The notes: a model not told the origin generated them from the sequence alone. A stretch of DNA of 64,000 nucleotides from a virus (IMGVR_UViG_3300013105_000002:64001-128000); one strand, 5' to 3'; shown: positions 28,358 through 64,000, counted from the stretch's first letter. Numbers and translations: made by a program.

Positions 28358-28549
28358 ATGGAAGAACTGCTAAAGGCTTTGGAAGGCAATGTCTTCTACA
28401 GAAGTCCCATCCGACTTTCATGCTCAGAACAGAGCGAGATTCTTGCATACATCAAGAGGCAGGATGCTACTATCGCTGAGTTGAAAGAGGAAGTCCGAGA
28501 ACTACAGGTAGAACTTGCTGACGCTTGGGCTCAGGTGTTGCACGGATGA
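28358..28549 (+). CDS. Hypothetical protein
   Basis: 63-aa coiled-coil ORF. Confidence 0.6.
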   Translation: MEELLKALEGNVFYRSPIRLSCSEQSEILAYIKRQDATIAELKEEVRELQVELADAWAQVLHG

Positions 28550-29034
28550 TCGTTGCAATCAGCGGGCACCGCCCCGAGAAGATTCCTGATATCAATGCGG
28601 TGGTGGATGCCCTGAAGGTGGCCTACCACGAACTGGGAGTCAGCCATGTCATTCAGGGCATGGCTGCTGGTGTAGACCTAGCAGCGGCATATGCTGCTTG
28701 GGTGTCCCAGATTCCCTATACCTGTGCCAAGCCGTGGGCTGGACACAAGCCACGCGTGCAGGACAGAGAAATGTATGAAAAGGTGCTGAAGCACGCGCAG
28801 AGCGTTGTGGACGTGAGCCCGGAAATGAACTACACAGGTCCATGGCTTTACCAGACTCGCAACATCTGGATGATTGACAGCGCAAATATTGTCATTTCAG
28901 TGTGGGATGGTTCCGAGGGTGGAACTGCCAACGCGGTGGCATATGCGTTTGAAGAGGGGCGGCATGTGTACAACATCAACCCCAAGACAATGGAGAAGGA
29001 ATGGCTAAACTCTACCAGTCGAAAGCGTGGCTGA
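28546..29034 (+). CDS. SLOG-family (YspA/DUF1273, DprA-like) protein
   Basis: ISGHRP, GMAAGVD, RN.WMID, VWDGSEGGTANAV motifs. Confidence 0.8.
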   Translation: MIVAISGHRPEKIPDINAVVDALKVAYHELGVSHVIQGMAAGVDLAAAYAAWVSQIPYTCAKPWAGHKPRVQDREMYEKVLKHAQSVVDVSPEMNYTGPWLYQTRNIWMIDSANIVISVWDGSEGGTANAVAYAFEEGRHVYNINPKTMEKEWLNSTSRKRG

Positions 29035-59603: not shown

Positions 59604-59936
59604 ATGTCTGTAGAAAATGAAGAACATCCTAGAGAACTTAGACTGGTAATCAAGGTTCGTAAGGATGCGAAGATGAGTCCGAAGAAGTTGGCTGCACAGG
59701 CTGTACATGCCGCTCTCCAACTGGTAGAGTCTCACCATGGCGGGCCGGTGATCGTCCTAGATGGCACCAAGCGTCAGATCGAAGAGTGTACAGTTGTGAT
59801 CATTGACGAGGGTAGAACCGAAGTCAAGCCAAATACGGTTACTGCTGGCGCTTATTGGGATGAGCGTGATGTTCCTCCTGAGAAGATCGAGCAGTGGAAG
59901 GCCGAAGAGGCACTTGACCGCAGCAAAACCTTCTGA
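59604..59936 (+). CDS. Peptidyl-tRNA hydrolase, Pth2 type
   Basis: LVI.VR.D.KMS.KKLAAQAVHAA and IIDEGRTEV.PNTVT motifs. Confidence 0.8.
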   Translation: MSVENEEHPRELRLVIKVRKDAKMSPKKLAAQAVHAALQLVESHHGGPVIVLDGTKRQIEECTVVIIDEGRTEVKPNTVTAGAYWDERDVPPEKIEQWKAEEALDRSKTF

Positions 59937-59978
59937 TAGAGTTCCACTCGTCAGCAAGAAACGAACGTCGCAGTCACC

Positions 59979-60007
59979 TTGACAGCCAGTTCCAATCTTG
60001 GTAGACT
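59979..60007 (+). promoter_or_regulatory. Sigma70-type promoter of the large ncRNA
   Basis: TTGACA-N17-TAGACT with TG extension. Confidence 0.8.
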
Positions 60008-60013
60008 AGAATA

Positions 60014-60707
60014 CAGAGGACGGAATAGCAACCGTCGCAAATAAATGCAATCGCTCAGACTTGCGGGTCTGGCCGGTGGGGTAGTGTAGGGTGTGGTCCG
60101 TGCCTTGCATTCAGGAAACTACCTCGCAATCGCAAAAGTCAACGGACACTAAAACTTCATAGATATAAGGATAGCCACATTATCTCCTTTACCAAGGTGG
60201 TCGGAAGGTCAGGTAGTAGAAAGATTGACTGACTTAACGGAGGTCCGTAAATCCTCCAACAAACTTCATAGATTTGTCTGACGTAGGAAAACACGTTGTA
60301 TGTCTACGGAGGTAGGAAGCCGAAAGAGCACTCGATAAGGTAAGTCTCGACAGTGGCAATCTCTCCTAATGATTAGGCGCGAACCGCTTGGACGGGCGTC
60401 CTGCCAGACAATAAATTTGGTGCTTGGGCTTGATGGGTGCTTGCCCAATCACCAATTAGTTTGGCTTAACCAGCCGAAGGTTGCTTCTACCTAAAGAAGC
60501 CGTGGACCACCATACGAAAATTGAGGGTGGAGGTTGTTCTCGTGAGCCAAAATCACAGAGGGAGTGATCCCGCCTGAGGGTCGTGGGTAAGCAGCAGTTG
60601 GTTACTTATGCGAAATCCCACACTTGGGTCAGTGAATAGAACTAGTTTCAGTCTAAAGCCGACAATGGACGCTGAAACCTGTGGGTGCAAGTCCCACCTG
60701 ATCCACA
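60014..60707 (+). ncRNA. Large (~690 nt) multi-stem non-coding RNA, GOLLD/ROOL-class candidate
   Basis: Own promoter, no + strand ORF, more than 12 hairpins, a pseudoknot candidate, a 13-nt direct repeat, and a 3' domain ending in GTGGG-TGCAAGT-CCCAC. Confidence 0.7.
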
Positions 60708-60828
60708 AGCAATAGAGGCTCCGAGACTCTATTCGTGAAGGCTGAGAAATGAGCGCGAACCAAAGTATCAGCAACGCATGGTGTTTTAGGGGCGTGACCA
60801 CATGCATAAAAAGGAGAATTCCCCACCA

Positions 60829-60900
60829 GTCTCTATAGTACAACGGATAGTGCATAAGATTCCTAATCTTAGAATGGGGGTTCGAATCCCTCTAGAGACA
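60829..60900 (+). tRNA. tRNA-Arg(CCT), canonical
   Basis: GTCTCTA/TAGAGAC, D loop CAACGGATA, TAAGA-TT CCT AA-TCTTA. Confidence 0.93.
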
Positions 60901-61065
60901 CGTTTGGTAAGCCGGGAACCCTGAGGCAAAGTAGTTACTAGCATGACGAAAGCCTCTTGACACCACTCATAGCCTGTTACGGCATTTATTAGAACCGAAG
61001 GGCATATGTGAGGAAACCCGCAGAGGTGTGTATATCGGAATGCTAGGGCTGCACACCTCGATCTT

Positions 61066-61140
61066 CCGCGATTAGTTTGAACTTGGATAAAACGCCGGTG
61101 GCAAAGCCGGAATTGAGTGGTTCGAATCCCTCATCGCGGG
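61066..61140 (+). pseudogene. Degenerate tRNA-like gene (Cys GCA-like loop)
   Basis: CCGCGAT/ATCGCGG, GTTT/AAAC D stem, CCGGT-GGCAAA-GCCGG (6- or 8-nt loop), bulged T stem. Confidence 0.6.
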
Positions 61141-61146
61141 CAACAC

Positions 61147-61175
61147 TTGACACCCAGAACTTGGCGTGTTATTCT
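61147..61175 (+). promoter_or_regulatory. Sigma70-type promoter
   Basis: TTGACA-N17-TATTCT, then AAGGAG RBS. Confidence 0.75.
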
Positions 61176-61207
61176 TAGTAGACCAACAACCACCAAGGAG
61201 ATTGATC

Positions 61208-63765: not shown

Positions 63766-64000
63766 GGGGCCGACAGGTTTCGACAGACATAACTAAACAT
63801 GGTTCTCAGTCATGATTGGACAGATCATTAAAAGGTCCAAAACAACAAATGCAATGGACAACATTGTTTCCGCATCGATGGAAAACATCGATGCCGAGTA
63901 CGAGGCGCTTGTCGCTGAGTTCTCGCTTGTCACTGTCTGAAAGATAAACAAGGATGGGGCACGATACCGCCTTATTAACCAAGAGTATCAAAACACAGTT
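63766..64000 (+). ncRNA. ssrA: tmRNA (3' end beyond the window)
   Basis: 5' GGGGCCGACAGGTTTCGAC signature; tag frame from AAAT-GCA at 63851 to TGA at 63940. Confidence 0.9.

Follow-up and report, generated by a model that had tools for sequence, protein, structure and literature searches.

What kind of RNA is made from a long stretch without a gene that lies behind a strong promoter in a phage genome, and does it form one molecule or several? The question arises at positions 60014 to 60707 of a 64,000-nucleotide segment of viral DNA (hereafter the window), which comprises positions 64001-128000 of IMGVR_UViG_3300013105_000002, a 131,350-bp virus record with direct terminal repeats. An earlier note, made from the sequence alone, had described the stretch as a single large and ornate non-coding RNA (ncRNA) of ~690 nt, with a pseudoknot, an internal repeat and a 3' domain resembling transfer RNA (tRNA), and had proposed either a divergent GOLLD/ROOL-class RNA or a new class. 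We found a real, conserved and structured phage RNA locus, and its description as a promoter-driven, non-coding and richly structured region beside tRNAs in an actinophage-like genome was borne out. The single ~690-nt molecule was not: only the first ~150 nt (module A) and the last ~80 nt (a tRNA-like element) are kept across relatives, a core of ~230 nt. The reading that we consider somewhat probable is a modular, processed architecture containing an element similar to a reduced transfer-messenger RNA (tmRNA), which we refer to as mini-tmRNA-like.

A promoter and a self-closed 5' domain

The promoter lies on the plus strand at 59979-60007 (TTGACA-17-TAGACT with a TG extension). A consensus scan found 10/12 matches, in agreement with the strong promoter that had been placed at 59979, and transcription is expected to start near 60014. 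The arrangement TTGACA-17-TAnnnT was present at equal upstream distance in the window and in 10/10 full-length relatives checked. As had also been claimed, no plus-strand open reading frame (ORF) of 60 amino acids (aa) or more occurs in the stretch, the longest being 41 and 35 aa, and in relatives the gene callers left the homologous stretches empty. A frame starting from GCA within module A is not conserved, since it runs for 14 codons in the window and for 42 in the relative L002 and meets an early stop in L072. Together with insertions and deletions that do not come in threes, these results led us to reject a protein-coding reading. Folding-energy z-scores, which are weak when taken alone, reached -2.4 over the full stretch and lay between -1.4 and -1.7 in its parts.

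Relatives of the locus were obtained mainly through a neighbouring protein. DNA searches returned L002/L033, a relative at moderate distance, and L064, a fragment that is nearly identical. The productive route was a search with the PTH2-like peptidyl-tRNA hydrolase encoded directly upstream, which gave 16 homologs of 53-99% identity whose contigs were then examined. The locus was found directly after the PTH2-like gene in 12 related phage contigs. Covariance models for module A and for the tRNA-like element were built from the window and L002 alone; directly after PTH2, the former matched every relative and the latter matched all except L089, which is a low-coverage contig of 1.3 kb. L088 has a PTH2 homolog of 53% identity, but its contig does not extend far enough to reveal the locus. 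Models R1 and R3 for module A and R2 for the tRNA-like element found no homolog in 23 loci with distant relatives of a 712-aa gene that lies downstream, nor in phages Weasels2 and Cece. Exact-pattern scans (a 17-mer against viral contigs, and patterns from the tRNA-like element, from hairpin B of the middle region and from the 3' part of module A) returned only the known relative or chance matches. Neither a metagenome scan match (L065) nor a match in the genome contigs of an Obscuribacter metagenome-assembled genome was a new relative, and a locus search based on Pnkp found nothing.

Module A is a structured RNA of ~150 nt on the plus strand (60014-60164), matched by models R1 and R3 in 12 homologs with E values from 1e-8 to 1e-50. 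It consists of a closing helix, P0, three hairpins with conserved loops, P1-P3, and a long stem, P4, that bears an inner hairpin. P0 pairs GAG (60016-60018) with CUU (60155-60157) of a junction motif discussed below, and thereby closes module A before the optional cassettes begin. In an alignment of 11 sequences with pairwise identities of 61-84%, 91.9% of the pair cells held standard pairs, as compared to 28-45% with slid partners, and 19/41 pairs had changed on both sides; the observed values were reached by 0/500 shuffles. Compensatory changes support the stems GACGG/CCGTC, CAGAC/GTCTG and GGTAGT/ACTACC as well as the inner hairpin, and the loops contain invariant sequences of 8-17 nt. Covariation had been set beforehand as a test of the proposed RNA. 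It was strong both in module A and in the tRNA-like element, and present in hairpin B and cassette 4 of the middle region.

A pseudoknot had been predicted within this domain. The loop GUCCGU (60096-60101) could pair with ACGGAC (60142-60147, same strand), and both motifs start exactly where they had been reported, at 60096 and 60142, as do the two strands of the 3' domain, TGGGTCAG at 60625 and CTGATCCA at 60698. The pseudoknot is a candidate identified by conservation. Both 6-mers are invariant in 10/11 sequences, and the pairing is therefore beyond the reach of covariation; one end pair is lost in L080, and the motif is kept in L089. We regard the pairing as plausible.

Module A occurs as a single copy in the genome and comes first after the promoter in every relative, whatever comes next. 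It had no match in Rfam and was absent from all distant phage loci searched. It is thus a new, covariation-supported RNA fold without family assignment, and no description of module A and the cassette system was found in Rfam 15 or in the searched literature. At gathering thresholds Rfam reported only tRNAs in the window, and a permissive scan covering 59900-61200 returned tRNA-Arg and a sub-threshold tRNA match. Group I/II introns, RNase P and OLE, which the earlier note had listed for checking along with GOLLD and ROOL, gave no match at E≤10 in this interval and were rejected, as were raiA, 6S, SRP, YrlA, HEARO and known ribozymes. A riboswitch or T-box leader was also rejected: there was no Rfam match, no terminator follows module A, and in L078 the tRNA-like element lies 7 nt on. 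In the bacterial Y RNA YrlA, a permuted tRNA-like module with a closed acceptor and an open 'anticodon' stem is joined to a Ro-binding stem, whereas here the acceptor stem is open and the arm closed, and this candidate was rejected on the fold as well as on the missing Rfam match.

Cassettes and a repeated junction

Between the two modules the relatives differ in both length and content. Counted between ACGGAC and G1 of the tRNA-like element, the linker has 7 nt in L078, 64 nt in L079 and L076, 112-113 nt in L073 and L072, 172 nt in L081, 183 nt in L069, 222 nt in L080, 245 nt in L002, 414 nt in L074 and 478 nt in the window. The linker of the window is a chain of four pieces on the plus strand, each found alone in another relative. 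Cassette 1 (60165-60260), an optional insert with a terminal hairpin whose loop is CCGUAA, makes up the linker of L072 entirely; window positions 59979-60258 align contiguously with L072. Its GGAGG/CCUCC stem shows one compensatory pair, and the CCGUAA loop sits on a different stem in L002 and L080. The next piece (60261-60416) joins a second copy of the junction motif to cassette 2, closed by UUGUCUG/CAGACAA, and, at 86.6% identity, accounts for all of the linker in L081. The copies of cassettes 1 and 2 in relatives differ too little for covariation, and the closed domain of cassette 2 is a predicted one. Hairpin B (60417-60456, stem TGGGC/GCCCA) has a conserved 13-nt loop and is common to L002 at 85% identity, with 3/13 pairs changed on both sides and 0 broken.

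The last piece, cassette 4 (60457-60623), is a multi-hairpin domain with a terminal hairpin GUGGG...CCCAC, common to L074 at 70% identity, with 8 pairs of the cassette changed on both sides. It is closed by a long-range helix of about 60460-68 with 60545-53, and compensatory changes back GCTTCT/AGAAGC, CCACC/GGTGG and GTGGG/CCCAC. Nearly all of the stems listed in the earlier note therefore stand with compensatory changes. The exception is TTTGGCT/AGCCGAA, for which covariation makes a long-range partner of TTTGGCT, GAGCCAAA near 60545, likelier than the local AGCCGAA. The last hairpin of cassette 4 was also found in L073 and L089.

The exact internal repeat that had been noticed at 60152 and 60261 was confirmed as the 13-mer AAACTTCATAGAT, for which we estimate that chance would produce ~0.004 such repeats in 690 nt. 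Its first copy (60152-60164, plus strand) forms the 3' strand of P0 of module A. A related sequence, AAACUUNAUA, follows ACGGAC in nearly all relatives with a linker, and the motif recurs at cassette borders, at 60152 and 60261 in the window and twice in L074, including after cassette 4. Because the second copy marks the joint between cassettes 1 and 2 and because the motif recurs in relatives, we take it to be the junction at which cassettes are added, and the internal repeat is thereby explained.

The two conserved modules can also be parted. Behind module A, L089 has a lipoprotein-like gene of 107 aa, then the last hairpin of cassette 4 and then tRNA-Arg, and the tRNA-like element was not detected in this contig. 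Since L089 carries module A without it, the two are separable. The lipoprotein-like gene (L089:531-854), with a signal peptide and a Cys, stands in place of cassettes and tRNA-like element. A further piece of unusual content was seen in the linker of L074 (L074:4600-4735), where ~140 nt take a tRNA-like shape: the closing stem is GGACGG/CCGTCC, with A-C after it, and each of three hairpins bears a 7-nt loop resembling a T-loop. The piece was called by neither ARAGORN nor Rfam.

These results bear on whether the stretch is one folded unit of 460-690 nt of the GOLLD/ROOL kind, perhaps forming an oligomer, with the tRNA-like 3' domain as an integral part. Such an RNA would fit the fact that the whole stretch lies behind one promoter without an ORF, and that every segment folds into hairpins, several of them with compensatory changes. 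The position beside phage tRNAs is that of GOLLD and ROOL, and the fragment L064 is 98% identical over 60268-60706, with unalignable spacers beyond. However, the covariance models of GOLLD and ROOL gave no match at the gathering threshold, nor at E≤10 in the window, L002 or L074. The middle, 478 nt long in the window, measures only 7 nt in L078, and its pieces differ among relatives in kind and order. Module A has a closing helix of its own and occurs in L089 with no tRNA-like element detected, and no long-range covarying pair joins the ends. We therefore consider a single large ornate RNA to be improbable. Membership of GOLLD or ROOL was rejected, as the model test fails and there is no large conserved multi-domain core. 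The likeness is that of a structured phage ncRNA of unknown function beside tRNA genes; the difference is that the core here is ~230 nt in two separable modules, and that the large size comes from optional cassettes. The RNA of the window looks so large because the window has the largest number of cassettes. Of the two classes originally offered, the GOLLD/ROOL one thus fell away, while the novelty of the locus was upheld in that it is mostly undescribed, with no Rfam family.

An anticodon-less element with alanine identity

The 3' end of the stretch is formed by an anticodon-less, alanine-type tRNA-like element (60626-60706, plus strand), defined by covariation and by model R2. Its 7-bp acceptor stem, GGGUCAG/CUGAUCC, contains a G3·U70 pair and is followed by A73 and C74, and the acceptor strands are 70 nt apart. 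There is no D stem, the T-arm has the loop UGCAAGU, and the anticodon arm is replaced by an 8-bp stem, an A-rich asymmetric internal loop and a 3-bp tip, leaving no readable anticodon. The consensus structure was drawn from 11 sequences. In the alignment 96.8% of cells were paired and 12/24 pairs had changed on both sides, with compensatory changes backing the acceptor, the long arm and the T stem. G3·U70 was kept in 10/10 sequences, even where pairs 4:69 and 7:66 covary (L080), and A73-C74 was kept in all. The GGG...UCC-A-C end is identical to that of the phage's two tRNA-Ala genes. Changes in the T-loop are matched by changes in the D-region (UGCAAGU with AAUAGAAC, UUCAAUU with AACAGGAAG and UGCGAUA with AAUAGAAUGA), which suggests a preserved elbow contact.

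The tRNA-like 3' domain of the earlier note is hence present and covarying, and is better named an anticodon-less alanine-identity element that resembles a tmRNA reduced to its tRNA-like domain (TLD). Its 3' boundary at 60706 is discrete, because the 98% identity to L064 over 60268-60706 ends exactly there, after the acceptor stem and AC. Beyond 60706 the spacers cannot be aligned with L064, though the next two RNA genes are 95-100% identical. These spacers (60707-60828 and 60902-61062) point to mosaic exchange or very fast spacer turnover.

A canonical tRNA was rejected. The tRNA model gave 60626-60705 a score of 24.8 bits, below its cut-off of 29, in an alignment that carries 16 inserted nt in the anticodon region; ARAGORN made no call, and there is no 7-nt anticodon loop. 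A score just under the tRNA threshold could also be that of a decaying tRNA pseudogene, and if the element and the cassettes were such remnants, with no function of their own, then the tRNA-shaped piece with its T-loop hairpins in the L074 linker and the 31 tRNA and tmRNA genes of the phage would be readily accommodated. We regard this as extremely unlikely, because compensatory changes keep every helix and because G3·U70 and A73 are invariant. In addition, 40 nt show no difference between relatives in which the adjacent true tRNA-Arg has only 79.5% identity, and the arm that replaces the anticodon stem-loop keeps its internal loop in all relatives and in mycobacteriophage DS6A, discussed below.

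Elements with the shape of a tRNA can serve as processing handles, as in MALAT1-mascRNA and in the tRNA-linked stable RNAs 'species 1 and 2' of the phage T4 tRNA cluster. Here too a tRNA-shaped element 3' of an ncRNA could recruit RNase P and define the upstream 3' end. The element of the window differs in keeping full alanine identity together with an invariant D-region and internal loop, and it is more constrained than a processing handle needs. The Rfam family RAGATH-21 aligned weakly over the whole element, at 18 bits against a cut-off of 70.3, and the element is not a member. The two have in common an unpaired AAUAGAA junction, a UGCAAUU-type loop and a cloverleaf-like frame, a likeness that may amount to a shared elbow motif only. 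RAGATH-21 itself may be a tRNA-like fold with the same variant elbow; the literature searched for this family yielded nothing.

The tmRNA of phage DS6A has been listed as 'TLD only' (PMC4131195). A tmRNA of the DS6A type, lacking the coding sequence (CDS), was reported to inhibit endogenous tmRNA in E. coli, and the 'Standard, no CDS' kind numbers only nine sequences in the 2025 tmRNA database (PMC11915505). Model R2, which was built only from the present family, had one match in the 60.6-kb DS6A genome, at 28467-28567, with 30.7 bits and an E value of 8e-6 over the full model length. The same DS6A element gets 43.2 bits from the Rfam tmRNA model, in an alignment that skips the model's middle part, and we therefore identify 28467-28567 with the published TLD-only tmRNA. 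Both are phage RNAs of ~80 nt that have a T-arm and an acceptor stem with G3·U70 and A73 but neither a D stem nor an anticodon loop, and both have a closed helix, an A-rich internal loop and a 3-bp CCG...CGG tip instead of an anticodon arm. The element of the window differs in its variant T-loop UGCAAGU and its D-region AAUAGAAC, in its location behind a conserved structured leader and beside a PTH2-like gene, and in its coexistence with a full tmRNA in one phage.

Judged by these comparisons, the element would be a divergent new member of the rare CDS-less kind of tmRNA, to which it conforms in part. The shared features are the G3·U70/A73 end, the T-arm, the missing D stem, the helix in place of the anticodon arm, the absence of a tag frame and the likeness to DS6A; those that are missing are weighed in the next section. 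A full tmRNA within the stretch was rejected, as neither ARAGORN nor Rfam gave a match here and the real tmRNA lies 3 kb downstream; moreover, only 70 nt separate the acceptor strands, and the GCA frame of module A is not conserved.

Genomic setting and possible roles

The locus lies within ~1.2 kb without a plausible gene between the PTH2-like gene and the 712-aa gene at 61166, which has no TROVE match and is not syntenic in relatives. The PTH2-like gene (59604-59936, plus strand, 110 aa) has a Pfam PTH2 match of 35.5 bits and directly precedes the RNA locus with the same synteny in all fetched contigs. Upstream genes encode a phosphoribosyl pyrophosphate (PRPP)-synthase-like protein, Nampt, a nicotinamide mononucleotide (NMN) adenylyltransferase-like protein, a T4 Rnl1-like RNA ligase, an HNH protein, Pnkp and the PTH2-like hydrolase, and the order RNA ligase, HNH, Pnkp, PTH2 and gene-free gap is kept in all contigs of sufficient reach. 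In the RNA cluster, the tRNA-like element is followed 122 nt downstream by tRNA-Arg(CCU) (60829-60901, plus strand; called by ARAGORN, Rfam 64.3 bits). The same succession holds in relatives: tRNA-Arg(CCU) comes next in the gene-free gap of most of them, and an Rfam-confirmed tmRNA (66-91 bits) lies further on in 8. A second odd tRNA-like element (61063-61141, plus strand) has a normal T-loop and an irregular anticodon region and is conserved in L002 (L002:5106-5184), with a normal acceptor stem and a GGTTCGAATCC T-arm. In L002 it has a tRNA score of 36.3 bits with a 13-nt anticodon loop, the copy in L064 is 100% identical, and no Rfam match was found for it in the window at E≤10.

The phage's real tmRNA was located by ARAGORN on the whole genome, at genome positions 127766-128125. 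It straddles the end of the window, with its 5' part at 63766-64000 on the plus strand, and belongs to a total of 30 tRNAs and one tmRNA. Its predicted tag is an acidic one of 29 aa ending in LVTV. The tags of relatives (L002, L069, L072, L074 and L078) are either a short ADYALAA or acidic sequences of 21-30 aa, a sharp variation within one clade. Downstream of the tmRNA, ARAGORN reported tRNAs with 2- or 4-base 'anticodons' (ta, ttga, ttat) at L002:7315-7390, L069:7682-7758 and L078:5606-5680, which could be of the frameshift type or have altered anticodon loops. L069 also has, downstream of the tmRNA (L069:8162-8321), a gene like Thg1, which carries out 3'-5' nucleotide addition in tRNA 5'-end repair; with it, the tRNA-repair set of Rnl1, Pnkp and PTH2 grows by one member. 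A gene for SmpB was not found in the phage. Because the nearest GenBank relatives of the flanking proteins are in Microbacterium and Rhodococcus phages, and because some of the relatives' tmRNA tags terminate in DYALAA, an actinobacterial host is plausible.

In the explanation that we propose, the stretch would be the 5' part of a phage ncRNA operon that heads the tRNA/tmRNA gene cluster and is built from separable modules. The conserved TTGACA-17-TAnnnT promoter would start transcription at module A, a self-closed domain of ~150 nt with four helices and a probable loop-to-tail pseudoknot. Zero to four structured cassettes, swapped between relatives at the repeated junction motif, come next. 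The region would be transcribed as one precursor, from which an RNase P cut at 60625/60626, 3' trimming and CCA addition would yield an RNA of ~80 nt; excision of the tRNA-like element would also set the 3' end of the leader. The ~80-nt RNA may be charged with alanine, may bind SmpB, or both, and may possibly engage stalled ribosomes. It could then compete with host tmRNA and so damp trans-translation, or it could accept nascent chains without tagging them, with the neighbouring PTH2-like hydrolase as a candidate to release the peptide.

For module A, any particular function can be proposed only tentatively. Its most likely role would be that of a cis-acting leader of a long untranslated transcript, which it might shield from premature (Rho-type) termination or from 5' decay via a partner, for example RNA polymerase. 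The put RNA of phage HK022 and the boxB-boxA-boxC leaders of rRNA operons are promoter-proximal, act in cis and modify the elongating RNA polymerase. Like them, module A is a structured RNA at the start of a long, largely untranslated operon and is independent of what follows; unlike them in sequence and with no model similarity to them, it can be compared only as something that may work in the same way.

Alternatively, module A might be released at the junction motif as a stable small RNA acting in trans, or as a protein-binding decoy, functionally unrelated to what lies downstream, so that the locus would consist of small RNAs independent of one another, as with the stable RNAs encoded in the T4 tRNA cluster. 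A self-closed domain with invariant loops of 8-17 nt that is independent of the downstream content, followed by a motif that recurs at cassette borders (60152 and 60261, and twice in L074), would suit such a release. Duplex predictions of module A against the phage's own tmRNA and tRNA-like element gave z-scores of -2.0 to +1.7 with no consistent site, i.e. no signal above shuffles and no complementary target in either RNA, and a role in cis would agree as well with the fact that module A sits exactly at the transcription start in every relative. We consider release as a trans-acting RNA doubtful, though it deserves to be kept in view.

A more ambitious proposal joins the PTH2-like hydrolase, module A and the mini-tmRNA into one dedicated phage system that would either rescue ribosomes without tagging or sabotage rescue by the host. 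On stalled ribosomes the nascent chain would pass to the mini-tmRNA and be freed by the hydrolase, and module A, together with its cassettes, would control or scaffold the process, e.g. by binding polymerase, SmpB or the ribosome. We put this forward as an unlikely, speculative arrangement.

Several observations weigh against the modular, mini-tmRNA-like reading. The tRNA-like element of the window had no Rfam tmRNA or tmRNA_permuted match at E≤10, nor did its L081 variant, and its D-region is without the GG...CGAC motif of tmRNA; kinship with tmRNA therefore hangs on one cross-match and a shared architecture, and the element may instead descend independently from tRNA-Ala. It lacks an encoded CCA. 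Titration of SmpB as the sole role would affect the phage's own tmRNA too, since the phage has a full tmRNA and is without SmpB. All homologs come from one phage clade, and PTH2 synteny is for this reason weak evidence of a functional link. Module A could equally be a trans-acting RNA. Finally, all cassettes are structured, two of them with covariation, so that a single long RNA may be functional in this particular phage.

The message-less form of tmRNA is known from one phage, DS6A, and its role is unsettled between inhibition of host trans-translation and tag-free rescue. The locus described here would mean that a divergent message-less form is fixed throughout a clade of large phages whose genomes encode, in addition, a full tmRNA, a peptidyl-tRNA hydrolase and enzymes of tRNA repair, and this clade would offer a natural system in which to test what message-less RNAs do during infection. 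The swapping of cassettes at a repeated junction shows, in addition, how a phage RNA locus can grow to resemble a giant ornate RNA that it is not.

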